Source: Candidatus Berkelbacteria bacterium RIFCSPLOWO2_01_FULL_50_28
Lineage (GTDB): Bacteria > Patescibacteriota > UBA1384 > 2-12-FULL-50-11
Direction: 5' to 3'
Length of the DNA: 64,000 nt
Assembly (NCBI GenBank): GCA_001774395.1
Contig: MEZX01000002.1
Coordinates: forward strand, 302,101 to 366,100
The position numbers and the translations under genes are program-made. The notes beneath the pieces are model-generated. The model saw nothing but the letters and a program-made list of their open reading frames with translations. It was not told where the DNA came from and did not search any database. Within the stretch, counting starts at the first letter, position 1; every line of letters starts with the position of its first letter. Of this stretch, positions 5,869-63,248 are shown piece after piece.

Positions 5869-5956
5869 AGTTTGAAATAGTTTTTTGGGGCTTGCCCCGC
5901 ACCTCGAAACCTGATTGCAAATTTCTGACATCAGAATATTGCAAGAGGTTGAGCTG

Positions 5957-5970: not shown

Positions 5971-6056
5971 GGCTTGCTACCCTGTTGTTACTCTGAAGTA
6001 AGTAAGTGCCCTTTGCGGGCGGCAGATTTTTTCTGCTTAAACACAAGGAGGTTCAG

Positions 6057-6182
6057 ATGAATGATTTGAACACCGCTGTACCGGCGGCCGAGGGTGAAGA
6101 AAAACCCGAGGAAGAAACCGATACAGACAAACCCGTAGAAGGCGCTCCAGTCGAAGAGACAACACCAGAGCAGCCGCTGTAA
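6057..6182 (+). CDS. small acidic protein (41 aa, Glu/Pro/Thr-rich), possible leader or small protein
   Basis: Perfect SD AAGGAGG at 6044-6050, 6 nt before the ATG. The ORF MNDLNTAVPAAEGEEKPEEETDTDKPVEGAPVEETTPEQPL is followed by an intrinsic terminator. Not in the ORF track because it is under 60 aa. Confidence 0.4.
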   Translation: MNDLNTAVPAAEGEEKPEEETDTDKPVEGAPVEETTPEQPL

Positions 6183-41174: not shown

Positions 41175-41837
41175 TCATTTCTTTACACGCCCGGTACCTT
41201 TTGTACCGGGCATTGTTATATTCTTAATCTCAATAGCTAGGCGTCTGACGATTACTTTATTGGAGAGAAAAGAGAATTTTGATAAGACCTTTTGCTTGAA
41301 ATGGTCATCGAGATCGAAAAGCAAACTACTTTGAGATTTTAGAGCGATTGTTAAGGGTAAGCGCGAGCTAAGCGAAACTAGATGAACCTTCTTGTTGAAT
41401 CTCTGAGCGGTCTCGATAGCGTAGAGTAAGTCAGCGTCACCGGTGATAATTAATGCTTCGTCGTAACTATCAGTAGCCGCACCTACTGCCATATCAATCG
41501 CGAGGTGCACATCAACGCCCTTCTCTTTGCCTGTGGTCTTGGAGAAGTGTCCTTGGTAAAAAATGGTTTTGTGGTTTTTCTTGACGCTGTCGAAAAACTT
41601 CCTTTGGGTTAGCGCTAAGGTTCGCTTGGCCTTGGAATCAGTTGAGAGGTGACGCATATAGGTTCCGTAAAAGTAAATTTTCTCTAGTGAAAAATCTTGC
41701 TCCAATTGCCCGACAAAGTCAGAAAAGTTAAAGTATTGACCAGAATTCAACATCTCGGCCATCCCACCGAAAAGATTGGAGCCGTCAACGAAGGCGACGA
41801 CTCGCCCGCTATCTGATTTAGCTTTGGCACCAGCCAT
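41175..41837 (-). CDS. NYN/LabA-like (PIN-like) domain protein
   Basis: VAFVDGSNLFGG, GVDVHLAIDM and ITGDADL motifs typical of the NYN (DUF88) domain. Confidence 0.7.
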   Translation of the reverse strand: MAGAKAKSDSGRVVAFVDGSNLFGGMAEMLNSGQYFNFSDFVGQLEQDFSLEKIYFYGTYMRHLSTDSKAKRTLALTQRKFFDSVKKNHKTIFYQGHFSKTTGKEKGVDVHLAIDMAVGAATDSYDEALIITGDADLLYAIETAQRFNKKVHLVSLSSRLPLTIALKSQSSLLFDLDDHFKQKVLSKFSFLSNKVIVRRLAIEIKNITMPGTKGTGRVKK

Positions 41838-41844
41838 ACTCTAA

Positions 41845-41889
41845 AACTCCCCCTCTCCCCTGTAAGTGGATAAAAAGTAACCCTCCATG
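41845..41889 (-). promoter_or_regulatory. conserved 45-nt leader/promoter-proximal element, copy upstream of the NYN gene
   Basis: ACTCCCCCTCTCCCCTGTAAGTGGATA...AACCCTCCATGT (plus strand). Near-identical to 60990..61034. On the coding strand it gives a purine-rich GGGGAGAGGGGGAG tract just 5' of the ATG. Confidence 0.5.
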
Positions 41890-42038
41890 TGATTTCAATA
41901 TGAAATATTAACAGTTAAATGTCAAAGAGTACCGAACCTGGGGAAAATGGCAAAAATTAAGACTAAGAGTCAGAGATAATTTAATCTTATGTAAATAAAG
42001 TAACTTTTAGTTGAGGCACAGTAGATCAGCTCAAAGAG

Positions 42039-42410
42039 TCAACGACGGTTTTTGAGAGTAAGAACGCTTGCACCAAGGATATTTGCAATTTCTTTGAGTT
42101 CAATTGCTAAAGATGCGATTTGTTCCTTGTATTCCACGGTAGTTTGATCGATGATAATTAACCAGTAGTCTGTCTCGTTGGCTGACTTGAGGGCGATTTG
42201 AAAAAAGCGAAGATAATCCCGCCTTGAGCTTGAAGACTTTGCTTCGTGAACGTTGGCTCCTATCGAAGTAGCGCTCCGTAGTAGTTGGTCGGCAATCGAT
42301 CGAAGATATGGCTTCCGGTTAATCAACTCACATAACTTTACAGTTCTAACGGAAAAAGCAATCAATCTCTTATAAAACTGCTCTTTAAATTTTTGTTTAT
42401 CATTTTCCAT
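42039..42410 (-). CDS. four-helix-bundle protein (TIGR02436 / 23S rRNA intervening-sequence protein family, Avd-like)
   Basis: 123 aa with LLRSATSIGANVHEA...RRDYLRFFQIALKSANETDYWL, the hallmark motif of this family. Confidence 0.75.
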   Translation of the reverse strand: MENDKQKFKEQFYKRLIAFSVRTVKLCELINRKPYLRSIADQLLRSATSIGANVHEAKSSSSRRDYLRFFQIALKSANETDYWLIIIDQTTVEYKEQIASLAIELKEIANILGASVLTLKNRR

Positions 42411-42441
42411 TTTCGTATTTACATTTTAATTTTACCACTAG

Positions 42442-42468
42442 GTCGTCAAGAAAATTAACAGGTTCAAA
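42442..42468 (-). promoter_or_regulatory. shared upstream box TTTGAACCTGTTAA-N6-TTGACGAC (coding-strand view), copy before the four-helix-bundle gene
   Basis: Same box at 61062..61089 upstream of the 13-kb giant gene. Contains a -35-like TTGACG. Confidence 0.4.
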
Positions 42469-42516
42469 TCGCTTTGAGGTTTTACGAGATCCTACCGGAA
42501 GAAAACGATCAAGTGT

Positions 42517-43491
42517 CTAACCCATTCTCCGGATAGATCGGGGGGCTTTGGCGGCTCGGAGGAGTTTGGCGAATTTGCGTTTCTGACGCTTGCGGTAGAT
42601 GAATAAGAGGACAAACAGGATTAGTAGTGCGATGCAAAGAATAATTAGCCACATCGGGAAGACATAGAAAACTAACTCCGAGCTCAGCTGGTCGCCTTTT
42701 TCGCCGTAGAGGATATTTAGGGTGGCGACATAACGACCGATCTTCAACGGCTGATCGTAGGATTGAGTAATTAAACGATCGGCCTTCGGAAAAATGTTTT
42801 TCTGATCGAAATCGATGCTGGCGGTCTTACGGCCGAAGATGTTAGTCAGGGTGATAAAGCCTTTTGGTTTGATATGGACAGAACCGTTGTTGTGGATTCG
42901 GGAATTGAACGTGATAGGTGAGTGTTCAAAACGTATTTTATCGACTTTAAATTCTTTAACATAAGCCGAGTAGCTGATATCACCAGCCACAGCTACCAGA
43001 ATTAAGCTACCAACCTTTGTTCTCGTAACGGCACCCGTGCCGCTAACTTTGTCGTTGTTTGCTAAATAGGCCAGAATTGAGCCGTATTGACCGCCTGGTT
43101 CAGCGTTGACGGGGATAGTGATAACGAACTTAACGACTTGTGTCTGTAAGGGGGTTAGGGTGAACTTCGACGGCGTAATCTTCGTCCAGTTTTTTAGGAA
43201 ATAAATTGAGTCATCTTCCGCGACGATTTTAGCTTGTCCGAGTTCGTTGCCAACGAACGGCTGGATTCCCATCTGATATTTTTGGACAATCCCGCTGGTG
43301 TTAACAACTTTCATTGAGCTCTTTATGGTATCGCCGGGCTTGGCAGAGAGCTCAAAGAGCGGTGGAGAAATGGAAACTTTTGCTTGGTCTACAGTCGCTT
43401 CCTGAGCCCGGATATTGGCTGGCAAGACAGAAAAAACTAATACCAAGACCACCAGCGCTAAAATTCTCAATTTACAATTTACAATTTTCAT
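42517..43491 (-). CDS. DUF916/DUF3324-like cell-surface protein, copy A'
   Basis: Signal peptide MKIVNCKLRILALVVLVLVF. Block ITIPVNAEPGGQYGSILAYL. C-terminal TM plus tail RKRQKRK. The first 7 codons are the intergenic-type AAAATTGTAAATTGTAAATTG motif. Confidence 0.55.
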   Translation of the reverse strand: MKIVNCKLRILALVVLVLVFSVLPANIRAQEATVDQAKVSISPPLFELSAKPGDTIKSSMKVVNTSGIVQKYQMGIQPFVGNELGQAKIVAEDDSIYFLKNWTKITPSKFTLTPLQTQVVKFVITIPVNAEPGGQYGSILAYLANNDKVSGTGAVTRTKVGSLILVAVAGDISYSAYVKEFKVDKIRFEHSPITFNSRIHNNGSVHIKPKGFITLTNIFGRKTASIDFDQKNIFPKADRLITQSYDQPLKIGRYVATLNILYGEKGDQLSSELVFYVFPMWLIILCIALLILFVLLFIYRKRQKRKFAKLLRAAKAPRSIRRMG

Positions 43492-43886
43492 TAAATTTTC
43501 AATTTATCAATTTTCAGTGTACCCGTATTTTGGCGTAAGCTCGATGTTATTTTCTGAAAGATTAGGGTTAACTCCTGACATTCGCTGACGATGGGCTCAG
43601 GTGGTTCAGCCAATGATGGCAGTGCTGTCCTAAGCATTCGGAGCCAATGTCTAGTTTCTTGAGCCTCTTTTTTACAGATGAAGATCTTATTACTAAAGTC
43701 TTTGCGCGAGCTAGCAGCGTTGGCTTCAGAGTAGTTTGCCCCGATGCTGGTTGCAGAGCGAATCAGCTGATTAATAATAGGGCTACAAATAGAGTCCTGC
43801 TTAATCGTTCGGCACAAAATAATCACCGATTCGCCAAACTGCGCCGTTCTTTCCTCTAAATCATATTTGCTTGATGGTTGTGTCAT
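43491..43886 (-). CDS. four-helix-bundle protein (TIGR02436 family, Avd-like), second copy
   Basis: LIRSATSIGANYSEANAASSRKDF...AQETRHWL. Confidence 0.7.
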   Translation of the reverse strand: MTQPSSKYDLEERTAQFGESVIILCRTIKQDSICSPIINQLIRSATSIGANYSEANAASSRKDFSNKIFICKKEAQETRHWLRMLRTALPSLAEPPEPIVSECQELTLIFQKITSSLRQNTGTLKIDKLKI

Positions 43887-43994
43887 CCAATTGATAATTA
43901 GCTCATTGTAAATTTATTGTAAATTGCAAAATTGAGAACTGAAAATTATTACCCATTTTCAAACTATACACCCCAGTTGTCTCAACTCAACACG

Positions 43995-45182
43995 CTAAAA
44001 CGTTCCGGTCGTAATATAGTCGGCGGTACCAGTATAGGCACCAGCGGCCTGAGTAGCGTCAGCCGAAAGCCGCCAACCGGCATAGGCGACATCACTTGAG
44101 ACACCAACGATGCTCGACATAATAGTTGACGGAGCTTCAGATGCGCCTATATCGGCAACAAGCTCAAATTTTTGAGTGCCACCGCCGCATTGCTCGGCCG
44201 CCGTATCCCAGCCAGCGTTAGCTGTGGCTGCGGCATCCCCGGTGGTGTCGTCCATACAGACAGCATAACCGTTGTTAGTAGCTGTAGCCCAGGCATTTGG
44301 GGTTGTTAGGTTACATGCTCCGTCACAGGTACCAACCGCAAAAGCATTGGCGCCACTGTCTAAGCCCGCTACTGTGTAGACTGTTACTGTGTAACCGGTG
44401 CCAGCGTTGGTTACCACGGTCAGTTGTTGGCAGATATCGTAAAAAGCTTCTGTCGAGATTACTGCGTAGGGAATTGTTGTGGAGGTTGAAGTAATTTTTG
44501 TTCCGCCGGTAGTTGTACAAGAACCGGACGTAACAGCGGCAACAGCAAGAGTTAAAACCTCGTCAAGAGCGGCCGAAACGGCTATGGCCGCGGTTACGAC
44601 AATGATTGTGTCTTGGGAATCTTCGTCGGTGGAATCTACCGCTAGATTGTAAGTGGCGGCTGTTGAGTTAACAATTTGCGTATTACCGGTGCCACCGCTG
44701 GTGGCGTGCGTTCCGATTTCGATGACGATTACAACACCCGCCGCCTCACCTGCATAAGTCCCACAAGCAGTAAAAGTGAAAACATCTGCGGCCACAGTGG
44801 TAATCTCGATCGTGTCGCCAGCGCAAGCGTCGGACGAATCTACAATCGTCTCTTCAACAGCGTTAACGGTGATGTCGTAATCAAGCGCATCAGTACTGGC
44901 AAAGCCAGATGTGTCAAAGCCTGAAGCAAAGGTGAGAACGAGCGTATCGCCGGCGCTAAAATCACCGCCGGTGGCTTGGTCTAAGGTGATGGTGTGGTTT
45001 GCGGCAGTCGAAGGGCGAGAATCGGTAATGACATCCTTTAGGCTGTCTGGTCGGGCGGCAAAGGCTTTTGGCACAGAGAAGCCAGACAACACGATGGCGA
45101 CGATGGCCAAAAATATTAACCCCCGCTCAAGCTTTACCCTCTGCGAGGTGAACACCTGAACTGATTTTGCTAAATAATACAT
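43995..45182 (-). CDS. secreted ~395-aa protein with shared C-terminal domain (WxL-like?), copy B'
   Basis: Start set at the internal MYYLAKSVQ..., parallel to the MYYKA start of 11974..13146. Signal peptide ...KAFA/ARP. C-terminus AGWRLSADATQAAGAYTGTADYITTGTF. ATG is 4 nt after the upstream gene's stop. Confidence 0.55.
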   Translation of the reverse strand: MYYLAKSVQVFTSQRVKLERGLIFLAIVAIVLSGFSVPKAFAARPDSLKDVITDSRPSTAANHTITLDQATGGDFSAGDTLVLTFASGFDTSGFASTDALDYDITVNAVEETIVDSSDACAGDTIEITTVAADVFTFTACGTYAGEAAGVVIVIEIGTHATSGGTGNTQIVNSTAATYNLAVDSTDEDSQDTIIVVTAAIAVSAALDEVLTLAVAAVTSGSCTTTGGTKITSTSTTIPYAVISTEAFYDICQQLTVVTNAGTGYTVTVYTVAGLDSGANAFAVGTCDGACNLTTPNAWATATNNGYAVCMDDTTGDAAATANAGWDTAAEQCGGGTQKFELVADIGASEAPSTIMSSIVGVSSDVAYAGWRLSADATQAAGAYTGTADYITTGTF

Positions 45183-45186
45183 GTCT

Positions 45187-46350
45187 TTAGAATGTCCCCG
45201 TTGTAATATAGTCGGCAGTACCGGTGTAGGCACCAGCTGCCTGGGCACCGTCAGCCGATAATCTCCAGCCTATCTTGGAGATATCCGTTACCCCAACGGC
45301 ACTCTGCATAATCGTTGAGGGCGTTTGAGGACCAGATAGATCGGCAACTAGTTCGAACTGCTGAGTACCTCCGCCGCACTGCCCAGCCGCTGCCCAGTCG
45401 GCGTTAGCAGTTTCAGCAGCGTTTCCGGTCGTGTCGTCCATACAGATAGCGTACCCATTAAAGGTGGCAGTTCCCCACGGAGCAGGATCGGTTAAAGTAC
45501 AAGCGCCATCGCAGGAACCAACTGCAAATGGATTAGCACCAGCATCCAAACCAGTGACAGTGTAAACGGTGACTGTATAACCCGTACCGGCATTGGTAGC
45601 TACGGTCAGTTGTTGGCAGATATCGTAAAATGTTTCTGTGGATATTGTCCCGTAAGGAATTGTTGTTGCCGTACTCGCAGCGGGTTTCGTGCCACCGGTG
45701 GTTGTGCAGTTTGCATCCGCGGCCAGACCGGCCACTGTTAGGGTCAAAACTTCATCGATTGTGGCCGAAATTGCTACACCTGCTGTTAGAACCAAGACAG
45801 TATCCTGAGAGTCATCGCCGTAACTGCCGGCCACATTCAATTGAGAGGTGCCCGCTGTGGTGTTGACAATCCGGGTGGTCCCGCCAGCGGCGTTGGAACC
45901 GAACTTCATGGTGATGGCCGTACTGGCCGCCTCAGCGGTGTAGCCACTACAGGCCGTGAAAGTCACCACCTGGGAAGCAAGCACATACTCGACACTATCC
46001 GTTGCGGTACAAGAAGCTATTAGTGTTTCGCTAGTGGCGCCGTTCACAAAGTCAACATCAGTCAATGTTAAGGTCGTCAAGTTGTACCCAGCCGGGAAGG
46101 TAACAATTACAGTTTCACCAGCAATGAAAGTAGTGCTTCCAGAGAGATCGAGAACTATCTCGTGGTTAGACGCAGTCGAAGGGCGAGAGTCACTCAATGT
46201 ATCCTTCAAACTGGTTGGGCGAACGGCAAAAGCGGATTGAATCCCGAAGGGCTGGGCAATTATAGCAATTAAGCTTAACACCGCTAAAACAACGCGGTAG
46301 CGATTAGCTAATTGCTTAGTTTTAGGGGCTACAAGGTAACCACGAACCAT
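45187..46350 (-). CDS. secreted ~387-aa protein with shared C-terminal domain, copy B2
   Basis: Paralogous to B'; N-terminal SLKDTLSDSRPSTASNHEI, C-terminal IGWRLSADGAQAAGAYTGTADYITTGTF. Start ambiguous between GTG at 46395 and ATG at 46350; ATG preferred. Confidence 0.5.
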   Translation of the reverse strand: MVRGYLVAPKTKQLANRYRVVLAVLSLIAIIAQPFGIQSAFAVRPTSLKDTLSDSRPSTASNHEIVLDLSGSTTFIAGETVIVTFPAGYNLTTLTLTDVDFVNGATSETLIASCTATDSVEYVLASQVVTFTACSGYTAEAASTAITMKFGSNAAGGTTRIVNTTAGTSQLNVAGSYGDDSQDTVLVLTAGVAISATIDEVLTLTVAGLAADANCTTTGGTKPAASTATTIPYGTISTETFYDICQQLTVATNAGTGYTVTVYTVTGLDAGANPFAVGSCDGACTLTDPAPWGTATFNGYAICMDDTTGNAAETANADWAAAGQCGGGTQQFELVADLSGPQTPSTIMQSAVGVTDISKIGWRLSADGAQAAGAYTGTADYITTGTF

Positions 46351-46431
46351 TAGAGCGACCTGATTTAACAATGATTTTATTTTTCCCCCTCGCACATACT
46401 ATATATACATTGAAGCGTATCCAACAGATGT

Positions 46432-46444
46432 GTCAACCCCGCAC
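46432..46444 (-). promoter_or_regulatory. GTGCGGGGTTGAC motif copy (minus orientation), just downstream of the GIY-YIG gene and upstream of the B2 gene
   Basis: Plus strand reads GTCAACCCCGCAC. Contains a -35-like TTGACA. A TATATA lies 23 nt downstream on the coding strand. Confidence 0.4.
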
Positions 46445-46447
46445 TTT

Positions 46448-46705
46448 TCAACCGTCTTGAAGGCAATGCCCAATACGCTTTTTCAACCTTGCGTAAGACT
46501 GACCAAATTGTTTGAGCTTCTTCTCTCGATCGAGCGCATCTAGTCTCGAGGCATAACCTTCAAGGTAGACAATCTTCCACGGTCGGTAAGGTTTTGTCGC
46601 AACTGACTTACCTTCGTTGTGATCGAGTAGTCTTTTCCGCAAGTTGTTCGTCTGCCCGAAGTAAAGTCGCTGTTCTTTTCCGAGTAGTACATACACCCAA
46701 TGCAT
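46448..46705 (-). CDS. GIY-YIG nuclease-family small protein (YhbQ/UPF0213-like, ~85 aa)
   Basis: MHWVYVLLGKEQRLYFGQTNNLRKRLLDHNEG...RPWKIVYLEGYASRLDALDREKKLK. Start trimmed to the family-typical M-x-W-V-Y-V-L. Confidence 0.7.
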   Translation of the reverse strand: MHWVYVLLGKEQRLYFGQTNNLRKRLLDHNEGKSVATKPYRPWKIVYLEGYASRLDALDREKKLKQFGQSYARLKKRIGHCLQDG

Positions 46706-46738
46706 AAGTTGATTGTAGCAACTTGCGACGGTTGAATA

Positions 46739-46758
46739 GTGCGGGGTCAACCCCACAC
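46739..46758 (-). promoter_or_regulatory. GTGYGGGGTTGACCCCGCAC palindromic copy of the motif, upstream of the GIY-YIG gene
   Basis: Near-perfect inverted repeat GTGTGGGG-TTGA-CCCCGCAC in the coding-strand view. Confidence 0.4.
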
Positions 46759-46770: not shown

Positions 46771-47721
46771 TCATCTGCTCATAGCTCGCAAAAGTTTAGC
46801 TCGACGCCGGCGGAAGTACACGGTTGAACCAACCGCCAGAATTGCCAATAGCAGGACTATAATAATGAAGGGCCAGGGGATGGAGACAAATCGAGAACTG
46901 GCCACTAAGATTTTTCCGTCTTGCTTAAGAGTGAATTTGGCGTCGTAGACCCCGGGCCAGATTGTGCCGGTATAGGCGCTGATATATTGCCTCGAAGACT
47001 CGGGCATTAGGACCGAGCTCGCTAACTGGGTGACCATCTTTTGCTCACCCCAGGTTGGCGTTAAAGTCAGATCGCCATCAGCGAAAAAGAAAAATCCGGT
47101 CGGGTTACTAATTTCGGCCAGGAACGGTACCGGTGTGCTAACAACTATTTTCGGTGTCTGGAACGAGCTGATGCTCAAGCTTTCAATGGTTGGCTTCGTG
47201 GTCGAATCGACCGAAAGCAAAAACGAGGTGCTTAATGCTGGAATAATTCGGGTATTGGCGTTTTCGTCAAAATAATTTGCTGGTAGGCGAGCCTGGAAAA
47301 TCAGGGCGGCGCTGTAACCACCCGGGACAGTACCCTTGGGCGCTAGGATGGTTACCTGAACTTCTTTACTGCCTTGGGCGTCCAAAATGAGGTCTGGACT
47401 GTCGAGCGTTAGCCATTCAACACCTGAGTGTGGCCTTGGCTCGGCCGTAAATTCGGGTGATCCGAGGTTGTTAATGCCACTAATACTAAATTTAGAAGCG
47501 GACAATGGGATTGGTTCCTTCCCAAGATTGGTAACTTTAATCTTCACGATCGTTTTCTCGCCTGGTTTAACGGTCTGCTGAACTAAGCCAGGGCTAATTG
47601 ACAGTGTCGGGCTAATGGCGCCTTGGCCTGACGCTGACAAGGTGAATGCAAATACCGACATTAAGATTGCCAGCGTTAGAATTTTCAATTTACAATTTAC
47701 AATTTTATCGCGTTCGCTCAT
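46771..47721 (-). CDS. DUF916/DUF3324-like cell-surface protein, copy A2
   Basis: Start set at MSERDKIVNCKLKILTLAILMSVFAFTLSASG (signal peptide). Upstream ORF extension is AT-rich repeat sequence. Block VTILAPKGTVPGGYSAALIF. C-terminal TM plus tail RRRRAK. Confidence 0.5.
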   Translation of the reverse strand: MSERDKIVNCKLKILTLAILMSVFAFTLSASGQGAISPTLSISPGLVQQTVKPGEKTIVKIKVTNLGKEPIPLSASKFSISGINNLGSPEFTAEPRPHSGVEWLTLDSPDLILDAQGSKEVQVTILAPKGTVPGGYSAALIFQARLPANYFDENANTRIIPALSTSFLLSVDSTTKPTIESLSISSFQTPKIVVSTPVPFLAEISNPTGFFFFADGDLTLTPTWGEQKMVTQLASSVLMPESSRQYISAYTGTIWPGVYDAKFTLKQDGKILVASSRFVSIPWPFIIIVLLLAILAVGSTVYFRRRRAKLLRAMSR

Positions 47722-47892: not shown

Positions 47893-50800
47893 TCATGGAA
47901 AAGTTGCTGTTATCACATAAACGACGTCAGCTGTGTAATCGCCGTTAGCTTGGGTGTTCGATGGGTAGAGGCGGTAAGTAATATCGTTGGTGGCGCCTGT
48001 GGCCGGTGCGGTTCGGTCGGCAACTGGGTCGCCCGGGCCGGTGTGAGAAAAGCCAGCAAATTTAGCCCCGCCGTTGGTAAAACGATCAGCCGTGCCGCCG
48101 GTTAACGATGAGTCGTCGGTTGAATAGCCAAAGCCGTAAGACCCAGCACTGAAGGTTGTCGGAGTCGCGTTCGTACCCGTCCAATCGGCTAGTGTCACCC
48201 CACCGAAGCGGACATTAGTCATCGCTTGGGTTGACCAAGCGTAAACGACATAGCCGTTCAAGGCATTACTAGAAGCGGTCAGCGTCGATGTTTGATCACT
48301 GGGGTTGGAGCCGGGGTTAATGGTACCGAAGTCTTTCGAAGTGGAGTCCAGGCCTAGGGTTAGTGTCTGACCAAAAATCCAGTTAACGGTGTTACCGCAG
48401 TCGGTGTTGGTGCCGTCGCTAGCGATAATTGTTGATCCGCCAGAGGCATCAGATCGAGAGACATTAACATACGAGGTTTTTATTTGGTCGTTACCAACGG
48501 CAGCGACATTTAGGAGCCAACTACCGGTAATGGCGGAGTTTCTGAAGTATAGTCTCGTTCCAACCGCTTGCCCGTTCCAGTTCATATTGTTAATCGTATA
48601 GGTGGCGCCGGATTCGTATTCTACTTTCACACTAGCTGTGGTGATGGTGTAGTTGTTGGTGACGGTTGCGGCGGCGTTAAAGTCGACTCCTGCCACCCAG
48701 CCCGTTCGTTCACAGTCGGATGCAATCGTGCCGGAGCTGTTAGTAATGGTCAGGTCGTAAAACGCGTTGGTTGTCAGCATCCCACCAGACAAGGTTTGGG
48801 TACTGGTGCCACTCAAAGTGGTCGTGCCGGTATTAGCGGTAAAGGTACCCGAGTTAGCGTAGTTGCCTTTAATTGCAAATGTTGCGGCTGAGGAAGCTTG
48901 GTAAGTTTGATTAGCTCCGATAGTAAGGTTGCCGGTAACGGTGATGGCAGGATCACTCGTTTCAGCATTAACAACGGCTGATCCAGCGCCAGTCAGGGTG
49001 AAATTGCCTAAAACTTCAGTTCCAGCACATGCGTTATGTACTAAGTAGCTATTAGCATAGAAAAGGTTGTAGGTGTCAACTTCGATATCGTATACAGTTA
49101 CGGTCTCACTCACTTTTTGGATACTTGTAATAGGTTCCGTTCCAGAATAGGTGGCAAGCAGATCGCCAACCCGCAGTTCCTCAACAGCTTTTGAGCTGTG
49201 GTCAGCCATAATAAAGACGTGATTTGCTGTGGCCTGCACCTGGTTGTTAATGATGTAGTACGCATCTTTAGTCCCAATAACTGTTCCAACAACTGGAGAT
49301 ATGACTACTTGGTTACTACTGAGGTCGTAGGATTTGACAAGGTCACCTTCTTTAAGCTCTTCAATTGGCGTACTTCCCGTGGGGGTAAGTACTTGGGTCC
49401 CAGCAAGGAAGGACGTGGCCGAAGTGGTCATTGTGTAGGTCGGTGTACCAGAGGCCGGGCTGGTTTGGAGGTTGTAATAAGCTCTCGTGCCACAACCACT
49501 AGTGATGTTGGCGCTAGTGGTATTCTCGTAGCTAATCGTGGAAGCGTTGGCTGTAAATAACCCGGTCTTTGAGAAAGGAGTACCGCTACCAGTTAAGTGG
49601 TAAGTGCGATTGCCACCATCAAAGGTGGTGGCGGCCGAAGAAATACTCATGACGCTACTAACCGTAATATCTCCGGTTCCACCAGTTTGAGTGGTAATGG
49701 TAGCGGCGGGAGAAGCGGTAAACGTAAGGCTACTAAACGTCCAAGCGGTTGAGCCAGAAGTGGTGCCAAAGTTTTTAGCGCCTGCCACACTTTGGGTGAA
49801 TGTGCCGCCGGTGAGGTTGATGATACCTGCAGTTCCGGCGACGTTACCATTGACAGTAATATTCTGAGTACCGAGCAGCGATCCGGCAGTCATCGTCAGG
49901 TCGTTGGTAACAACCAAGGCGTCCTGAGGTGCCCAGCCACCGCCCGAACCGCTGAAAGTTAGGTTGTAGAATGAGTCACCAGCAGATTGGATAGTCTTAC
50001 TAGTGGCGGTTGCGTTAAAGATAAAAGTAGATGTCCCAGCGTTAAACACCGCATTACTTTCATTCGTAAAATTTGTTCCGACATAGACTGTTGAGGATCC
50101 GGCGGTAAAAATCGGTGCCCCGGTATTACCAGCTACTATAAAAGTCCCGACAGTAAGAGTTTGGTTGGCGGTGTCAAACTCACTATTTCGAGAGTTTCCC
50201 CAGCCAAACCGTAACGATCCGGTGATGGTAGTTGTTCCTGCCAAGGAGATTTTATAGCCGGTGCTGATATTGTCTGTAATGGTGGTATTGTAGGTAAACG
50301 CCGGGAGGGTGAAGTTGGCAGATCCGCTGAAGTCGATGCTTCCATTACCGAGTCCAAAAGTTCCAGCAGGGTCAAGACTGAAACTCCCCCCAGTTTTGTT
50401 CATACCTTTTGAATTAAAGTCAAAGGTTCCTGTCCCGAGAGTGAATGTGCCGTTATGGGCAGCACCGTTGTTTGTTATCAGTTGTGTGGTGTTGCCACTT
50501 TGGCCAACGGTCAAGTTGTAAAATCTGGGCTCCCAAGCATTTGTCGAGCCATTTTTGATAGTTTTTGTACCCGTCCCATTCATCACAACCGTTGAGGTAC
50601 CTTCGACGATACTGACACTGTCTTGAGCAACTGCACTAGTATCCCAATTACCGGAAACCGTAATAATTGAAGCCCGTTCTGTGAGAGACCAGGTGCCGGC
50701 GTTACCTGTCAGGTTGCCGCCAATAGTTAGAGCGTAGTTAAAGGTAGTATTGGTATCAAAAGTGCCGTTAGTAATATCGAAATTGTTAGTGACGCTCATC

Positions 50801-53800
50801 GCGTCTTGGAGCGTCCAGCCCCCACCCGAACCGTTGAAAATAATATTATATAATGCTGAGCCGCCAGTCATGGTTCCAGTGAGGGTTCGGCCGGTACTCG
50901 TTGAGCTGAAGGTCACTGTCCCTGTGCGAGCGGTAAAGGTACCGGAATTTGACCAGTTACCCCCAACTGTTAAGGCATAAGGAGTGGCCGTCACATCAAA
51001 CTCACCCGCGGTGATAGTGAGATTACCACCATTATCTGTAAGGGTTGCTTCCTCTAGCACATAAACCTCGGAACCGTTATTAACGGTTAGGTGGTGGTAG
51101 GTAGCGGACTGAACGGTTGAGTTGCCACCAGCGTTGTTGCCGGTGTAGGCGAAAGTGGAGGTAGCGGCAGTTAAGGCTCCAGCCGGGGAGGCGAGCAGTT
51201 GGAATGAGTCACCGGTTGTGCCACTTAAAGTCCAGGTGCGGTTACCAGCATCTAACGTTGTGGTGGCTCCAGAAGAATCACCGGATTTTCCAACCCTCAA
51301 AATGTCACTGACGGTTATTCCACCACTTCCACCTGTTTGGGTGGTAATAGTTCTTCCTGCTGCTGGGGCACCGAGCGAGTTAGAAAAAGTTAGATCATAA
51401 AATGTCCAAGCAGTACTGCCACTTGTTGTGCCAAAGTTTTTATTAACCCCTACCCGCTGTTCAAACGTCCCCCCAGTTAAGCTGATAACCCCTGAGGTTC
51501 CAGCGACATTGCCGTTGACGGTGATGTTTTGGGTACCGTTCAAGGTGCCAGCGGTCATCGTGAGGTCGTTAGCAATTGCCACGGCTGCATCAGGTTGGAC
51601 GGTTGCGGCTCCGTTCACGATCACGTTGTAAAGGGTCTGGCTGTTAGGAGAGTATGTCGAGGTACCAGTCGACGGGGCAAAGGTGAATGTTGAAGTGCCG
51701 TCATCGACCGCTAATGTTCCGGTGCCGTTGACGAACTTAACATGGCCGGTTGCTGAGATGAAAGCGGTTTGGAAATTGGCAGTATGAGTTCCGCCATTGG
51801 AGTTGACGTAAAAAGTGTCGGTAGCACTCGCGCGATTGAAGGTGGCGGTGCTTGATCCCCAATTCGAACTCGTGGCGCCATTGTCGGTTGAGTCGCCCTG
51901 GACCCATTTATCTGCGTTAATGGTGTAGTTTTGGGTATTAAAGGTTGCCGTTCCCGTAGCGTCTGCTTTTACCTGCGTGTATCCGCTGGTAGTAATATTA
52001 CCCCCGACATTAAAAGTCACCAGTCCCGCGACATCGCTGTGCATCAGGATACTCCAGGTGCCGTAGTTGGTGGCACCAGTGACGGTAACAGTCGCGGCGC
52101 TTAGTTTACGCAACTGGAAGGTGGCATTAGAACCAGATAGGGTTGCTCCTGTTCCTAATACTAAGTCGGCTCCAGCTGTTCTAAACAGTTCAAATTCACA
52201 GGTGACCGAACACGTCATCGTGCCGCCACTGGCATCACCGATGGTTAAAATGCCAAAGACATCGGTTCGGGCTCTGGTCATCGTGGTTGTTTTGGTGTTG
52301 TAGGCAACGGTCAGGTTTTCAAACTGGGTCGTACCCGTACCTGCGATATTGCCGTCACCATTAAGCTGAACGGTTGAGCTGTCGCGGGTGAAGACACCGT
52401 TTAGGTCCACCGTCCAGTGGCGACTGACGGTGATTGTTGAAGTCCGGGCTCGGAAAACAGCACTAGCACTACCAGCGATTGCGACATCACGGGTAACGTT
52501 AACGGCGTGGTTACTAGTAGTGGTGTCAAATGTTCCGAGAGTAATAGTAAGATCGTTAGTGATGATGACCGCGCCACTAGGTGTTACTGTTCCCCCAGAG
52601 CCGTTCAAGATCACGTTATATAGAGATTGACCATTCGGAGCGTAAGTCTTAGAACCGGAAGTATGGACCCAGGTAATTGTCGAAGTTCCAGGGGTTACCG
52701 TTATAGCGGGAGTGCCGTTAATAAACAGAACGGCGCCGGAAACCGTCACTGACGAGCTACCAAGATTAAGGGTACTGCTTGTTCCGCCGTAGGTAGCGTG
52801 AGGAAGGATGGAGTTGGTTGTACTACTCAAAGTAACGGTGCTAGAGCCGAAGCCAACAGCAACCGGGCCATCACGCCCAGCATTGCCATCACCGAACTGC
52901 AAAGTAGCCGCGGTTAGAGCGAAGTTTTGGGTGTTGACAGTTGTTCCAGTTACAGCCGTATTGGCCGCAACATAGACACTTCCGGTAGTTGTAATATCAC
53001 CAGCGAAATTATAAATGCTGTTATTAGCAGTTGCGTACGGTTCAATGGCCCAGTTCCCGTAATTGCCACCGGCCATTGTGAAAGTGGAGCCAGCCCCTCC
53101 GTTAATAAGGAAGCTCATTACAGAGCCACCAGTGAGCGTGGTAGCGGCGCCAAAGACGAGAGGAGTTTTGCTAATACTACCAGCGAGGTTAATGTACGAG
53201 GCGGCCTGACTGACCGTTCCCCCATTCAGGGTCATCACTCCATTAACTTGGTTCATACTGGTGCCGACGGTAATCGTTTTACCCGAGCCGGCCAACTGAA
53301 GGTTGTACATCTGGCTAGCAGAGTTGAGGGTACCGGTGTTGTCAGCCGTACCAGTCATATTAACCGTTGAGGCAGTGCCTTCGGTGAATTTGTTGCCAGT
53401 ATCGTTAAAATCGTTACCAACAGTAATTGTTGAACCGTTACCAATCAGAACAACGCCGGCAGTGTTAGCTAGCGTCAGGTCTCGAGCGACGTTAACGGCG
53501 TAGTTTGAGCCGGTCGTATCAAGCGATCCGTTGGTAACTGTCAGGTCTCGGCCGGTGCCGGTTGTACCTTCAAGGACGAAGGTTTCGGAGGAGTTGTTGG
53601 GGATTAGGTCGTAGTAAGTTGCCGACTGAATAGTTGTACTGCCAGCACCGTTATTGCCGGTGTAGGTGAAGGTTGAGCTGGCGGCGGTTAGTGATCCGGC
53701 GGGGGAAGCAAGTATTTGGAAAGAGTCACCAGTAGTACCAGACAGAGTCCAAGTGCGATTGCCGGCATCGAAGTAAGTGCCACAACCGTCAGCGGCCTTA

Positions 53801-56800
53801 CCTATTCTCATAACATCGCTAACTGTTATTCCCCCTGATCCGCCGGTTTGAGTCGTGATGAAAAATGCGGCACAGATTGGGGAGTTAGGATTCGAAAATG
53901 TCAGATCGTAGAATGTCCAAGCGGTTGAGCCGCTCGTTGTCCCGAAGTTCTTGGCCGCCCCAACTCTTTGCTCAAAAGTCCCACCCGTCATAGTAATCGT
54001 TCCTGCGGTGCCAGCAACGTTACCACTAACAGTTACATTTTGTGTTCCATTCAAGTCACCAGCCGTAATAGTAAGATCATTAGTAACGGTTAGAGCGTCA
54101 ACAATAGTGATATCGTCGCCAGTATCGTCAATAATAAGGTTGTAAAAACTCTGGCCGGCAGAGGTCATGTCGCCATCGGCAGTTGCGTTACCCATTGTTA
54201 CAGTTGATGTCCCAGGGGTGATCACGGCGGTATCGAGATTTTCCCAGTTACTACCTATGGCGTAGCTCGCCGAGCCCAAACTCATTGCAACTGTGCCGGC
54301 AGTGGATGTAAAACGGAAAAGTGCTGTCACGATCCAGGCAGTATTGTTGACGGTATTATCAATTGTTAGTGCACCGGTAATATTATTAGTAGTTACAAAT
54401 GTATAAACATTCATTGTTCCGGCTCCGATTGTGTAGGTTTGAGTTCCAGACGCTGGGCGGAAGTAGAGGTTACCAGCATAAGTATAGGCAGGGATGGTGG
54501 TGCTGCCAGTCATGGAATAATAGAAGTTGGGGACACTAATTGTGCCAGTGTATGAATAGGTAGGAGTTGCATTAGTAACATGGAAGCAACCTCCACTGCC
54601 GCCAATAGTACCCGCAATTGTTAATGTGGTGCCGGTACCGCCGTCGTAATAAATCGCTTGGGCGCAGCCGGCAACGCTGTTGAGCGTTCCTTGGATGTTG
54701 AGATCACTGATGACATGGATATCTGTTGCTGTCTGTGTGTAAATAGCTCCACCAGAAATAGTTAATTTGTTAAAGTGAGTGCCCGAACCGCCGTTGGTGG
54801 TAATCGTCTTAGTTGTTCCCGAAAGGACGACTATTGAAGTCCCATAGCCAGTGGCCTGAGTTGTCCAAGTTGAGTTGCTTTGCGTCCAGTTGCCGCTAAC
54901 AGTAATAGTTGAGGCCTGGGCTTTATAGGTAGTGCCGGAGGAAAATGTTAGATCGCCTGCAACCGTTAGGGCGTAGTTACCAGTTGAATCGGCATCTACC
55001 GTGCCATTAGTTAAGTTGAAATTACTGGCAGTCTCAACTGCTGCGCCGTACGTCCAGCCACCACCGACGCCGTTGAAAGTGAGAACATAAAACTTGCCTG
55101 TTGCACCAGTCATTGTCCCAGTGAGAGTTTTACCGGTAGTAGTGGCGTTGAAAGTGACGGTTCCAGAATTAGCTAAGAATGTTCCAGAGTTAGAGTAACT
55201 ACCGCCGATGGTTAAGGCGAAGTTGCCGGCAGTCACGTCTAATGTACCGGCCGTAATAGTTAGGTTGTTCGAAGTGATTGTTGCGGCTTCTAGGACGTAG
55301 ATCTCAGAGCCGTTGTTCGGAGTTAGATTGTAGTAAGTGGTTGATTGAATGATTGTGTTGCCAGCGCCGTTATTGCCAGTGAAGGTAAAAGTGGATGTAG
55401 TGGCCGTAAACGTTGGACTGGCGGTGAACACAAAAGGATTACCGTTGGTTCCCGAAAGAGTGTATGTTTTTGCGTCAGCGTCAAATGAAAGCGTATCGGC
55501 GGTGGCGTCAAGCGTAAAAATACCTGAAACGGTAATCCCGCCACTTCCGGTCGCTGCGATTGCTGTTCCTGCTGAGTACGAAGCAGTTAGGGAAAGGTTG
55601 TTGAAAGTCCAAGCAGTGTTGCCCCCAAATAAAACGGCTCCTGATCCACCAAGAGTAAGAGTTCCGCCGGTTAAATTGATCGTCCCGTTACCTGTTAGGT
55701 CGGGATCGGCACCACCGTCGCCGACGCTAAGGTCTTGGGTCCCCAGTAACGATCCCGCCGTCATGGTTAAATCGTTGGTAGCCGTAACCGCCGCGCTTGG
55801 TGTCCACTCGCCGCCCGAACCGTTAAATGTAAGGTTGTAGAAAGCCGAAGCACTGGTCATGGTCCCCGCTAGAGTATTGCCAGTATCGGTCGCGTTGAAT
55901 GTTATGGTACCGGATTGAGCGGTAAAAGTGCCGGAGTTAGAATAATTGTTGCCGATCGTCAGGGCGTAGTTAGAAACTGTCACATCAAGAATGGCACTAG
56001 CGTGAGTGATGGTGAGATTATTTGTTACAACAGTGTCTCCTTCCAAAACGAAGGTATCAGCGGCGTTTAGCTCCAGGTCATAATACGAGCTGGTCATTGA
56101 TTGGATGGTCGTATTCCCTCCAGCATTAGCTCCGGTGTAATAGAGTTTAGAAGTACCACCTGTTAAAGCTCCGGCGGGGGAAGCCAAAAGTTGGAACGGA
56201 TCACCGCCAGTACCAGATAGGGTCCAAATTCTATTGCCGGCGTCCAAGGTTGCCGTACCTGCGTCACCGCTCACACCAACTTTCAAAATCCCACTAACTG
56301 TAATCCCGCCAGAGCCGCCTGTTTGAGTAGTAAAGGTAATTCCTGACACACCGGTGTTGGAAAAAGACAGACTACTAAACGTCCAGGCCGTAGAGCCCGA
56401 CGTGGTACCAAAGTTTTTAGAGGCAGCCGCAGTTTGAAGAAATGTTCCACCAGTTAAGCTAAAAGCTCCGGCTGTGCCAGCGACGTTACTATTAGCCGTG
56501 ACGTTTTGAGTTCCAAGGAGCGTTCCGGCCGTCATCGTTATATCGCCATTTATGTTAACGGCCGCGCTTGGTGTCCACTCACCGGCAGCGCCGTTAAAGA
56601 TGAGGTTGTAGAAAGACGACGAACCGCTCAGAGTTCCTCCGAGCGTATTGCCCGTATCTGTGGCGTTGAAGGTGACGGTGCCACTACGAGCCGTGAAGGT
56701 GCCGGAGTTAAGGTAATTGCCGCCGATTGTGAGGCCCCAGTTGGAGCCACTAACCGCATCCAAAATAGCAGATGCCTGAATGGTTAAGTTTCCAGTTGCT

Positions 56801-59800
56801 GTAGTAGCTTCCTCTAAAACATAGGTGTCGAAGGAACAGATCGCGGAGCAGCCTATATCAAGATTGAAATATGAGCCAGCCCCGCCTCTTTCTATAGTTG
56901 TATTTCCCGCCCCGTTCTCACCCCGATAAGCAAAGGTTGATGTCGAACCAGTTAACGACCCTGCTGGAGAAGCCAGGACTTGGAAGGGATCACCAGCAGC
57001 GCCGCTTAATGTCCAAGTACGGTTACCGGCATTGAGAGTTGTTGTCGCTCCGGCGGCGTCGCCGGACGCACCGACTCGAAGAATTGAAGAGACGGTGATA
57101 CCGCCAGAACCACCGGTCTGGGTGGTTACAGTAAACGGACTGGAAGCGTGAGAATTAGAGAAGGTCAGACTAACAAAAGTCCAGGCACTGGAACCGGAAG
57201 TCGTACCAAAATTCTCCGCTGCCGCTACCCTTTGCGTAAAGGTACTTGAGCCGCTCATGGTAATTGCTCCAACTCCAGTGGCGCTACCGTTTACTGTCAC
57301 ATCAACCGAACCGCTCATCGTCCCGCCAGTATTGGAAAGATCATTGGCAACCTGAACAGCATTAGTGCTTAGCGAGAGCGTACTGGCGCCAGAATGAGTG
57401 AGGTTATAGAATTGCTTCGTACTGCCGGTACCGCCGGAAATGATCGTTTGGGTACCGCTGGTGGCGGCAAAATCAACTGTGCCGGTGTCAGCGTTAAAGG
57501 TGCCACCGATACTATTTGTCCAGCTACCTTTGACGGTTAAATTGGCGGCGCCCATCGTCAGTATCCCCTGGGATTGTGAAAACGTGACACTGCCGTTGAA
57601 CGTGACAGTTTGGCCGTTAAGATTGGTAATATTGGCTCGACTACAGCAGTCGCTTACCGTCAGATTGCCGGTAAAGGTTGTAGTCCCTTGGAAAATAAGA
57701 CTATAGGTATTTGGGAGGGAGTTAACCAGGCCGGAGTTATAGGTATAGGCGAGTAGGTTAACGTTGGCAGAGCCGCCGTGGAAGTAGAGCGAGCCGTTAC
57801 CAGTTCCCCAAGTTCCCGCAAGAGAAAGTGGATTTGTCGGCGGAGAAGCCATAAAGAAGGTTTTTGAATTCAGGTCAAAGGTACCGGCCCCTAAGGTCAG
57901 CACGTTTTCAACAGCGAACGATTGTTGCATCTGGGTTGTTTTACCGACGGCCTGACCGACGTTCAAGTTCCAAAAACGGCCTTCCCACGTATTAGTTGCC
58001 CCTGTCGTTATCGTCTTCGTTCCGGTTCCGTCCATGATAACCGTCGAGCCACCCTCAACAATATTGACGCTATCTTGGGCAATCGCTGATGTATTCCAGT
58101 TCCCTGAAACAGTGATAGTCGAGTTACGCTCATTGAGTGTCCATGTTCCTGAGTTACCGGTAAAATTGCCGCCGACAGTTAGGGCATAGTTAAAAGTACT
58201 GTTAGTGTCGAGGGTCCCATTAGTAATATCGAAGTTGTTAGTGACACTCATCGCATCTTGGAGGGTCCAACCACCACCAGAGCCGTTGAAGATGATGTTG
58301 TAAAAAGATTGGGCGTTGGAGGTAATGGTTTTGCCGGTGGCGACGGCATTGAATGTGACAGTGGAAGTTCCAGGCGTAACGGTTATTACCCCGGTGCCGT
58401 CTTTGTATTTTAGGTTGCCTGCTATCGAGACCGATGAAGATCCCAAGTTCAAGGTATGTGTGCCACAGTTCGGACCAACATAAAGTGCGTCGGTAGTGCT
58501 TGTTAGCGATACTACAGATGCATTGAAACTAACTGCCCACGAGCCGGTTCTCGTTGGTGCACAGTCAGCGATAGAAAAAAGGAGAGCAGTAATAGAGTAG
58601 TTACTAGCAGTTGTTGTAAAAGCACTTCCCGTTACACCGTTAGCCGCTTGGAGTTTCATTACCCCCGTCGTGGTAACGTTTCCGCCAAGTTGCCAAGTAT
58701 TGCTGTTGGATGCCGTGTAAGTGTCAACACCCCAGGATCCGTAGTTTCCTCCGGGGATCGTTATCGTCAAGCTAGCAGCATCCGGTCGGAAATACAGATC
58801 TCGATTACCTGTAAGTGTCGTTGCTGAGGCAAAGACTACCGGCGTGCAAGAAATAGTGCAATGAAGATTCAACCAAGACGAGCCTCCTTCGGCGACTGTT
58901 CCGCCATTGAAAGTTAAAACATTATAAACATCGAAGCTGTTGGTTGAGATAGTTGTTGTGAAACCCGATGACCCCCACTGGAGATTATAATACTGACTAC
59001 CACTTGCAGATGTGAACGTCCCGGTACCGGACATAATTACTGTTGAAGTATCGTGGGCAAACTTGTCGCCCGTATCATTGTAATGTCGGGCGATATTGAG
59101 TGTCGAGCTACCAGCGGTGTAAGAAACTCCAGCCGTGTTAGCGAGTGTAAAGTCACGAGTAACAGTTAGATTTTGGTTGCCGGCCGTGATAGCGCCGTTG
59201 GTGCCATTAAAATCATTGGCCACCTCGACAGCGTTACTGAATGTCCAGCCACCAGCGGCGCCATTAAATGTTAGGTTGTAGAATTTGCCAGTCGCGCCGG
59301 TCATCGTGCCGCCGAGGGTTTTGCCGGTGGCAGTGGAGGAGAAAGTTACCGTGCCGCTGGCGGCGGTGAAAGTGCCGGAATTGCTCCAGTTGCCGGAAAC
59401 GGTGATGGCGTTGGTGGTGGAGACGGTCAAAGTGCCGCCGTTATCAATGGTGACCCCAGCGACCGTGACCGAAGCGGTGTCCTCGGTGATATTGTGGGTG
59501 TTAAGAATTTGAACCGTATCGCCCGCTTGAGGCGTAGTGAACCCACAGTTCGTCCAGGAAAGGGCGTCGCTCCAGTTACCGGTGGCGGCTGATTGACAGG
59601 CGTTGTCGGAGGCGATTAACCACGACCTGGGTTCCACCCACTTCGTGGAATTTTCAATTTTCGAATTTTGTCGGACTTCGCCTCCATAGCTTCTTCGCTG
59701 CGCTTCGTCGCTATCAGTTTTCAATGAATTTTCAATGCTTGAATTTTCAATTTCCGCGGGCTTGCCCGCCGTAGTTGCCTCCTTCGCCGAAGTGGCTACG

Positions 59801-63095: not shown

Positions 63096-63204
63096 ACTTT
63101 TGCCCCCAACTCTTAGCTAGCTCAGCGGACTTGGCTCCATTTCTGGAGATTCCATAGGAGTATCGTCTAAACAAAAGTAAGGGTGAAGAGTTGTTAGTTG
63201 TTAA

Positions 63205-63217
63205 GTGCGGGGTTGAC
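63205..63217 (+). promoter_or_regulatory. GTGCGGGGTTGAC motif copy ~30 nt upstream of clpP
   Basis: Exact 13-mer shared with 5957..5970. Contains a -35-like TTGACT. Confidence 0.4.
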
Positions 63218-63248
63218 TTCTGTAAAGGGAACTTTACAATTTCTGTAA

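Follow-up and report, generated by a model that had tools for sequence, protein, structure and literature searches.

Palindromic elements at promoter -35 boxes of a Berkelbacteria chromosome and a minimal GIY-YIG nuclease as their proposed mobiliser

A 13-nt box, GTGCGGGGTTGAC, recurs in front of unrelated genes in a 64,000-nt chromosome segment (hereafter the window) of the groundwater bacterium Candidatus Berkelbacteria bacterium RIFCSPLOWO2_01_FULL_50_28, a member of the Candidate Phyla Radiation (CPR), and two of its copies flank a small gene for a GIY-YIG nuclease. What is this box, and why is it found both around a nuclease gene and at promoters? The original prediction regarded it as either an extended -35 promoter class or the operator of a dimeric regulator, and suggested that the GIY-YIG gene had been inserted together with, or between, copies of a promoter. 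We propose, with a probability of about 0.8, that the box is a junction, in which GTGCGGGG ends a palindromic mobile element as its 3' terminal inverted repeat (TIR), the 5' arm being CCCCGCAC, and abuts the pre-existing -35 TTGAC of the downstream gene, and we propose the GIY-YIG nuclease as the mobilising enzyme. The window contains three such elements: two copies devoid of an open reading frame (ORF), A and C, located before the promoters of a small acidic ORF next to tpiA and of clpP, respectively, and a 310-bp copy, B, which carries the gene for the 85-aa GIY-YIG protein (Table 1).

The copies of the box reported in the original prediction are all present. Exact matches to GTGCGGGGTTGAC occur at 5957-5969 and 63205-63217 on the plus strand and at 46432-46444 on the minus strand, while a fourth copy with one mismatch, GTGTGGGGTTGAC, is located at 46746-46758 on the minus strand and overlaps GTGCGGGGTCAAC at 46739-46751 on the plus strand. 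With up to two mismatches allowed, six matches are found in the window against 1.64 expected, a count reached in none of 100 dinucleotide shuffles, and GGGGTTGAC is found four times against 0.58 expected; hence the frequency of the motif, which the original prediction had singled out for checking, is above chance in the window. One of the matches with two mismatches, at 12318, looks like a chance occurrence. The positional bias towards starts, at 30-100 nt upstream, also holds, with 36-93 nt measured from TTGAC to the next start codon. Every forward GTGCGGGG is in turn preceded, relative to the downstream gene, by an inverted CCCCGCAC, separated from it by 54 nt (5895), 120 nt (63077) or 294 nt (46739-46746). 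Of these, the half-site at 63077-63084, inverted relative to its pairing partner 63205-63212, is an addition to the set described previously.

In the two ORF-less copies the box forms the 3' base of a long stem. The predicted hairpin between the half-sites 5895-5902 and 5957-5964 is confirmed, as site A (5885-5975) folds with -45.3 kcal/mol (z = -6.1), and site C (63070-63219) folds with -57.5 kcal/mol (z = -5.6). The sequences outside these stems can be compared with orthologous sites (L-numbers below are labels of loci from other genomes or metagenomes used for comparison). Upstream of the same small acidic ORF, L281 and L280 have TTGAC...CCTGTTGTTACTCTG and no hairpin, while in the window the 70-bp element A stands immediately 5' of the conserved TTGAC. 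In L249, L250 and L247, where the PEBP-tig-clpP synteny is conserved, the clpP promoter reads TTGACttttgtaaagtaaactttacaat, again with no hairpin, while the window has TTGA, then the 136-bp element C, then TTGACttctgtaaagggaactttacaat. The conserved part of both orthologous promoters thus begins at TTGAC and excludes GTGCGGGG. To judge from this conservation, the TTGAC at sites A and C is a genuine sigma-70-type -35 hexamer, and at the acidic-ORF promoter its first four bases constitute the target repeat's 3' copy. Insertion at TTGA leaves TTGA on both sides, and therefore the core promoter remains intact on the 3' side of the element. With TIRs extending to 12-20 bp, a flanking direct repeat of the target and presence or absence at two empty sites, the copies have the features of TIR elements of the type known as MITEs (miniature inverted-repeat transposable elements).

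The coupling to promoters is also seen outside the window. Among 70 element-adjacent TTGAC sequences from other genomes, 64% are followed by a -10 box with at least five of six matches at a spacer of 15-19 nt (mostly 16-17 nt), in comparison with 8.6% of the TTGAC pentamers found at other places in these loci and 5% of random positions. Insertion may also affect the gene on the other side. In the window tig ends with ...VKKAIDPALNS*, in relatives with ...VKKAIQ*; the terminal DPALNS and the stop codon derive from the 5' TTGA together with the adjoining start of element C (63073-63095), with the element itself providing the end codons (..PALNS) and the stop (63093-63095). According to this comparison, the C-terminus of a housekeeping gene was rewritten by the insertion of a mobile element.

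Both promoters have additional features of their own. Between the -35 and -10 boxes of clpP lies an inverted repeat, TGTAAAG-N4-CTTTACA (63221-63238), which recurs in the clpP promoters of relatives (L249 and L250, degenerate in L247) and in the groES promoters of related organisms (L117, L252, L121). We regard it as a candidate operator for heat shock or proteostasis in this CPR lineage, and to our knowledge it resembles neither CIRCE nor CtsR boxes. In L247 the tig-clpP spacer has a HicB-like insertion in place of the hairpin element; in the same locus two Y1_Tnp genes (IS200-like or RAYT-like) flank the PEBP gene and several LAGLIDADG ORFs are found nearby. Compact genomes of this kind carry several other kinds of selfish elements. 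The small acidic ORF is kept beside tpiA in relatives, and its 5' leader (5995-6056; ORF MNDLNTAVPAAEGEEKPEE...) contains two small hairpins, GCCC..GGGC and GCAGA-TTTTTT-TCTGC, both nearly identical in L281, suggesting that the leader may be a conserved structure.

Element B has the same arms around a gene. Its TIR reaches approximately 20 bp (CCCCGCACTATTCAACCGTC / GACGGTTGAAAAGTGCGGGG) and runs into the last codons of the ORF, and the same architecture is repeated in L116, L117, L119, L121, L122, L249, L252 and L256. The near-palindrome GTGTGGGG-TTGA-CCCCGCAC at 46739-46758, correctly recognized in the original prediction, can be explained by L249, in which an ORF-less element and a GIY-YIG cassette stand in tandem and have one cTTGA in common. 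This is the complete version of such a junction, and therefore we interpret the palindrome of the window as a solo 3' arm, TTGA and the 5' arm of the cassette. Thus, the suggestion that the GIY-YIG gene arrived by insertion stands, while the boxes on its flanks are not copies of a promoter, but its own TIRs together with the duplicated TTGA.

The nuclease ORF was initially called as 108 aa, starting at 46774, which is probably too long; a start at the ATG at 46705, giving 85 aa, is the most probable, because the Pfam domain begins at residue 24 of the longer version and the close homologs P0002 and P0003 were called at 85 aa. The GIY-YIG domain covers residues 1-67 of the 85-aa protein (24-90 of the 108-aa call). 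Pfam detects no further domain in it, in particular no C-terminal DNA-binding domain (NUMOD or similar), and NCBIfam contains no matching model; the basic C-terminal stretch, KKLKQFGQSYARLKKRI, is a putative helix. GIY-YIG is also the only Pfam match of the gene between the arms, and no Y1_Tnp gene was found at the cassettes. Tyr5, Tyr15, Gly17, Arg25 and Glu49, which we take to be the catalytic residues from what is known of the family, are invariant in the alignment of homologs. In a profile search of the PDB the nearest solved structures were the UPF0213 proteins 1zg2 (8e-9) and 1ywl (3e-7), followed by SLX1 (1e-6 to 2e-4). By sequence comparison, the protein is a stand-alone, minimal GIY-YIG domain belonging to the Slx1/UPF0213 lineage. 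Stand-alone bacterial Slx1-like proteins have been described in a survey of the superfamily as minimal nucleases of unknown role with mostly vertical inheritance (PMC1564403).

Table 1. Coordinates of the elements, their flanks and associated features in the window.
Feature	Position	Strand	Description
Element A	5895-5964	+	70-bp ORF-less palindrome; hairpin fold; empty orthologous site in L281/L280
Arms of element A	5895-5902; 5957-5964	+	5' arm CCCCGCAC; self-complementary 54-nt interior; 3' arm GTGCGGGG
Acidic-ORF (6057-6182)/tpiA promoter	5965-5994	+	-35 TTGACA 5965-5970; 18-nt spacer; -10 TACTCT 5989-5994
Cassette 3' flank TTGACA	46431-46436	-	3' TTGA copy + CA; 81-86 nt before ATG 46350 of a 387-aa ORF
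Element B	46437-46746	-	310-bp GIY-YIG cassette; 5' arm CCCCGCAC 46746-46739; 3' arm GTGCGGGG 46444-46437
GIY-YIG nuclease ORF	46448-46705 (stop included)	-	85 aa (MHWVYVL...LQDG); Pfam GIY-YIG E = 3e-15
Candidate internal extended -10 TGCTACAAT	46720-46712	-	6 nt before the ATG; read from the sequence, putative function
Cassette 5' junction	46747-46758	-	solo, slightly degenerate 3'-type arm GTGTGGGG (46758-46751), then TTGA (46750-46747)
5' TTGA direct-repeat copy, site C	63073-63076	+	inside the last codons of tig
Element C	63077-63212	+	136-bp ORF-less palindrome; hairpin fold; no hairpin in relatives
Arms of element C	63077-63084; 63205-63212	+	5' arm CCCCGCAC; 120-nt interior; 3' arm GTGCGGGG
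clpP promoter	63213-63240	+	-35 TTGACT 63213-63218; 16-nt spacer; -10 TACAAT 63235-63240; clpP ATG 63249
AT-rich heptamer repeat family	1246-1301; 2217-2292; 3372-3535; 43462-43516; 43891-43942; 47678-47706		

The association of this nuclease subfamily with the arms extends to other genomes. Homologs of the 85-aa protein at 86-94% identity occur in unrelated contexts with the same arms: in L116 (88%) the cassette lies between a histidine kinase and its response regulator, in L117 (86%) it lies upstream of groES, and in L252 (94%), one of the additional loci found in a metagenome scan with protein alignment, it is located at the groES promoter, at the orthologous -35 box and in the orientation opposite to that in L117. 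Relative to the ORF, the flanks in L252 read TCAA...TCAA, and therefore the tetranucleotide belongs to the target and not to the element. Together with the more distant homologs in L119 (52%), L121 (61%) and L122 (61% over the full ORF), the ORFs in L116 and L117 are all bracketed by (T)TGA-CCCCGCAC...GTGCGGGG-(c)TTGA, the 3' arm in L122 being degenerate (GCGTGGGG). Within the ~20-bp repeat, the inner part varies with the subfamily at either end (TATTCAACCGTC/GACGGTTGAAAA, TTTCCAATTGCC/GGCAATTGGATA, CTTTTGTTTATT/..AACAAAAG), and at 47-60% protein identity the arms drift along with the protein (TCCCGCAC/GTGCGGGA; CCCGCCCTTTTGGC/GCCAAAAGGGCGGG). Between independently located copies, with the L249 cassette left out of the comparison, dN/dS of the ORF is 0.04-0.11 at dS of 0.6-1.3, indicating that the protein is maintained by purifying selection. 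The GIY-YIG nuclease is the only ORF found between the arms in the loci examined.

Two of these loci contain arrangements which deserve separate mention. In L263 (~700-1159) a variant cassette with the arms CCCCGCCCTTTTGGC / GCCAAAAGGGCGGGG is located at the extreme 5' end of an apparent tRNA gene, with GGGGCGTG on the left and CGTGGCTCAG... on the right, and the GGGG of its 3' arm restores the first bases of the tRNA; this case can be likened to the -35 boxes, as in both the insertion regenerates a functional target sequence. L116 has, at the start of a pilin-like ORF, a CCCCGCAC-N55-GTGCGGGG pair without TTGA flanks, which is uncertain and could be due to chance.

ORF-less copies are considerably more widespread. 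A scan of genome collections (one genome per species) with the pattern CCCCGCAC-N40-70-GTGCGGGGTTGA returned at least 119 loci. The 5' TTGA, which is not part of the pattern, is present in 79 of the 121 matches listed, with 1/256 expected by chance, while 35 of the 121 have neither TTGA nor TTG at that side; the latter come mostly from GC-rich genomes and agree in number with the ~34 chance matches calculated. At least 86 ORF-less copies were thus collected from many CPR classes and from metagenome-assembled genomes (MAGs) labelled as Planctomycetota, Omnitrophota, Bdellovibrionales and others. In the subset that was profiled, a C follows the 3' TTGA in 47 of 54 elements, most interiors start with CTTT and end with AAAG, and the consensus of the terminal repeats, of approximately 12-20 bp, is CCCCGCACCTTT...AAAGGTGCGGGG. 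The interiors are unrelated between families and yet strongly self-complementary, with a median z of -4.4 against shuffled interiors. In 70 of the 86 copies an ORF on the same strand starts within 300 nt (median 73 nt).

Paralogous copies occur within single genomes. In four pairs (L153/L193, L150/L179, L191/L200 and L130/L134) the interiors are 90-100% identical and reversed with respect to each other, and in one pair of the same orientation (L162/L190) they are 96% identical; past TTGA...TTGACA the flanks are unrelated, and their orientation with respect to the gene downstream is preserved. Some loci have nested or tandem arrays of arms, namely L162 (3374-3556), with several 5' arms before one 3' arm, and L176 (1468-1572), with TCAA and TTGA flanks on opposite sides, which suggests repeated insertion into or beside existing copies.

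As to the mechanism, we propose that the nuclease would recognise the arms, probably extruded as a hairpin or cruciform, in analogy to its structure-specific Slx1 relatives. A 4-nt staggered cut at TTGA(C) followed by fill-in would produce the TTGA duplication, and the ORF-less copies would be mobilised in trans. SLX1 cuts branched and junction DNA, and a junction-type cleavage of the extruded palindrome by the cassette protein is plausible by this analogy. The association with promoters could result from the preference for TTGAC as the target, combined with selection against insertions into the genes of compact genomes.

The regulatory interpretation of the original prediction, in which GTGCGGGG and CCCCGCAC belong to an extended -35 class or are the half-sites of a dimeric regulator of clpP, the acidic ORF and the neighbours of the GIY-YIG gene, is in our opinion extremely improbable. 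The half-sites are indeed inverted repeats, the TTGAC of sites A and C is a real -35, and in other loci a good -10 follows most of the TTGAC sequences next to an element. However, the orthologous promoters of the relatives keep the -35, the spacer and the -10 without GTGCGGGG. The window copies show half-site spacings of 4, 54, 120 and 294 nt, and copies elsewhere 40-70 nt; such variation is difficult to reconcile with a dimer bound to a fixed operator. Moreover, the identical 8-12-mer occurs with the TTGA flank repeat across many classes of the CPR as well as in MAGs assigned to other phyla, the interiors have no relation to one another among copies and appear in both orientations, and the same arms bracket a mobile GIY-YIG ORF in unrelated contexts and are present in many bacterial lineages. 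Only slightly better is the standing of an explanation at the RNA level, according to which the hairpins would act mainly as REP-like stabilisers of mRNA, RNase III sites or terminators without a U-tract, the conserved stem would be recognised as RNA by a protein, and the GIY-YIG ORF would merely be situated in a loop. It is true that the hairpins are very stable and lie between co-directional genes, and that in the three copies of the window folding favours the sense over the antisense strand owing to G.U pairs that involve the TTGA flanks. But these apparent G.U pairs arise because TTGA is a direct repeat, and the asymmetry vanishes over the 86 copies, in which sense and antisense fold equally well (-35.5 and -35.1 kcal/mol) and sense is better in 40 of 86; the interiors may point towards or away from the downstream gene, the stem is not followed by a U-tract and no Rfam family matches. 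The lack of asymmetry together with self-complementary interiors therefore indicates a palindrome of DNA and not a strand-specific structured RNA, which the three window copies had suggested. We consider it highly unlikely that RNA is the main level of action; a secondary effect of the hairpins on transcripts is compatible with the data.

More serious, although still unlikely, is the possibility that a conventional transposase (DDE or other) from another part of the genome, or recombination, has spread these copies as ordinary MITEs, with the GIY-YIG gene as a passenger or as a selfish gene that homes to palindromes. TIRs with a 4-bp target duplication are typical of DDE transposons, an 85-aa catalytic domain without a DNA-binding domain seems minimal for a transposase, the ORF-less interiors of the window show no clear derivation from the cassette, and the genomes examined are partial. 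On the other hand, the GIY-YIG subfamily and the arms co-vary from 94% to ~47% identity, which points to a long-term coupling and not to a chance passenger, and purifying selection on the ORF is strong in copies that occupy independent locations. In addition, approximately 1 Mb of fetched loci contained no larger unit with the same arms, that is no arm pairs 300-1500 bp apart with TTGA flanks, which would leave room for a larger transposase. Homing by homologous repair would not be expected to duplicate TTGA, and the shared flank available to it is only 4-5 nt. Phages do not appear to be the carriers, as their GIY-YIG matches are distant (at most 40% identity). A scan of viral contigs with the bare 14-mer gave at least 99 matches, all single and at chance level.

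Several simpler identities were also considered and rejected. An intrinsic terminator is inconsistent with a stem followed by TTGAC and not by a run of T, and a terminator scan of the 41-48 kb region called neither of the two sites there. An integron attC (RYYYAAC / GTTRRRY) does not fit either, given that the ends are TTGACCCCGCAC / GTGCGGGGTTGAC, GTTGACA does not conform to GTTRRRY and the copies stand in front of housekeeping genes. A phage-type regulatory cassette is ruled out by the content of the window, a piece of CPR chromosome with rseP, proS, the small acidic ORF, tpiA, tig, clpP and two giant repetitive surface proteins. A search of the whole window against Rfam gave nothing at the gathering score, and at E up to 1 only noise (miRNA and CRISPR-DR models, 16-17 bits).

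A number of observations weigh against the interpretation as promoter-targeting elements mobilised by the nuclease, or at least against its simplest form. The -35 assignment, which stands at sites A and C, does not extend to site B, where no canonical -10 is found 16-18 nt after TTGACA; therefore, not every target is a promoter. At only 69-77% identity in Tig and ProS, the genomes with empty and filled sites are too distant to reveal the exact sequence before insertion or to establish a strict 4-bp duplication, and at element A the 5' flank is TTG (5892-5894), with the A of TTGA missing. In L116 and L249 the cassettes have cTTGA on both sides. By our count by eye, the cassette ORF is co-directional with the flanking TTGA/promoter in nine of ten contexts, which simple insertion does not predict, since the orientation would be random. 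GIY-YIG paralogs at 37-46% identity lack such arms. The notion that the ORF-less copies are deletion derivatives of the cassette was dropped for lack of significant similarity: element A compared with the cassette ends gave p of ~0.09, and element C compared with the cassette interior was not significant, although its interior is weakly related to the ORF-less element in L249. The breadth of the distribution may be overestimated, as some taxonomic labels of MAGs may reflect binning errors; the element and flanks of L172 (labelled Bdellovibrionales) are nearly identical to those of L191 (labelled Patescibacteria). Finally, the link between the nuclease and the cutting of the arms or the movement of the elements is one of association.

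Among known systems the closest published analogue is that of REPINs, i.e. pairs of repetitive extragenic palindromic (REP) sequences, and RAYTs, the REP-associated tyrosine transposases. Both have short GC-rich palindromic repeats in many intergenic copies, non-autonomous units composed of two inverted arms and a spacer, and a single enzyme gene bracketed by the arms (PMC3116915, PMC2817692, PMC3337134). However, the bracketed gene here encodes a minimal Slx1/UPF0213-like GIY-YIG nuclease rather than an IS200/IS605-type Y1 HUH transposase, the copies lack the GTAG/CGTC head of REPs but have a TTGA direct repeat and a location at -35 boxes, and the family spans distant lineages, whereas REPs are confined to one genus. 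Thus, enzyme class, target duplication and -35 targeting all differ from REPIN/RAYT. Bacterial MITEs such as the Correia element of Neisseria are similar in their small size, TIRs, short target duplication, hairpin structure and intergenic location near promoters (for a review see PMC10969869); but those elements bring parts of a promoter with them or insert at TA, whereas in the present case the -35 is part of the target and already exists in relatives, and the sole ORF-bearing version encodes a GIY-YIG nuclease and not a DDE transposase. Free-standing GIY-YIG homing endonucleases (seg of phage T4, I-TevI-type) are likewise selfish intergenic nuclease genes in varying contexts; they belong, however, to the UvrC/homing endonuclease lineage and possess a C-terminal DNA-binding domain (~200-270 aa in total), in contrast to the 85-aa catalytic domain of the Slx1/UPF0213 lineage described here, and homing yields no TIRs, target duplication or ORF-less derivatives. 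With respect to UPF0213 and eukaryotic SLX1, the best sequence matches among solved structures, the survey of the superfamily describes no link to TIR-bounded mobile cassettes (PMC1564403).

Whether these elements constitute a new class of transposable elements, in which a sole Slx1-like GIY-YIG protein of ~85 aa recognises hairpin TIRs, integrates at -35 boxes with TTGA duplication and moves ORF-less copies in trans in the CPR and several other phyla, is a question on which we see the chances as evenly divided. We know of no transposon that uses the GIY-YIG nuclease class alone, and full-text searches (the 12-mers; GIY-YIG with TIR, MITE, target-site duplication or CPR; UPF0213), which did not cover subscription-only literature, found no published description of such an element. 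If correct, our interpretation would reveal a widespread family of tiny mobile palindromes in the ultra-small CPR and other uncultured bacteria, which use the -35 box as a safe harbour without destroying the promoter and are able to rewrite gene ends, as in the last six codons and stop of tig, with a minimal nuclease of the structure-specific type as the likely mobilising enzyme. It would thereby provide a testable role for some members, at the least, of the large UPF0213/Slx1-like family of bacteria, and it would explain recurrent GC-rich hairpins near promoters that may otherwise be mistaken for terminators, RNA genes or motifs of regulation. The short, defined integration site (TTGAC) and the 85-aa nuclease make the system attractive for biochemistry.

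The neighbourhood of the elements contains other repetitive sequences. Two giant ORFs on the minus strand (9303 and 4362 aa; 13157-41068 and 47893-60981) have many internal repeat modules in common, and similar giant proteins of the beta-helix/NosD type are encoded at the same positions in relatives. The minus-strand cluster at 41175-46395 encodes an NYN-domain protein and includes two genes of the 23S_rRNA_IVP family (four-helix bundle) on either side of a 324-aa ORF with no Pfam match, as well as paralogous ORFs of 387 and 395 aa with ~71% DNA identity over 300 nt. The 23S_rRNA_IVP family in Pfam includes accessory proteins of diversity-generating retroelements. Several intergenic regions contain a second, AT-rich family of repeats, whose units resemble heptamers (AATTGTA / AATTGAA / TGAAAAT), and a 65-nt inverted pair of this family (2228-2292 / 3372-3436, 94% complementary) encloses tsf and frr.

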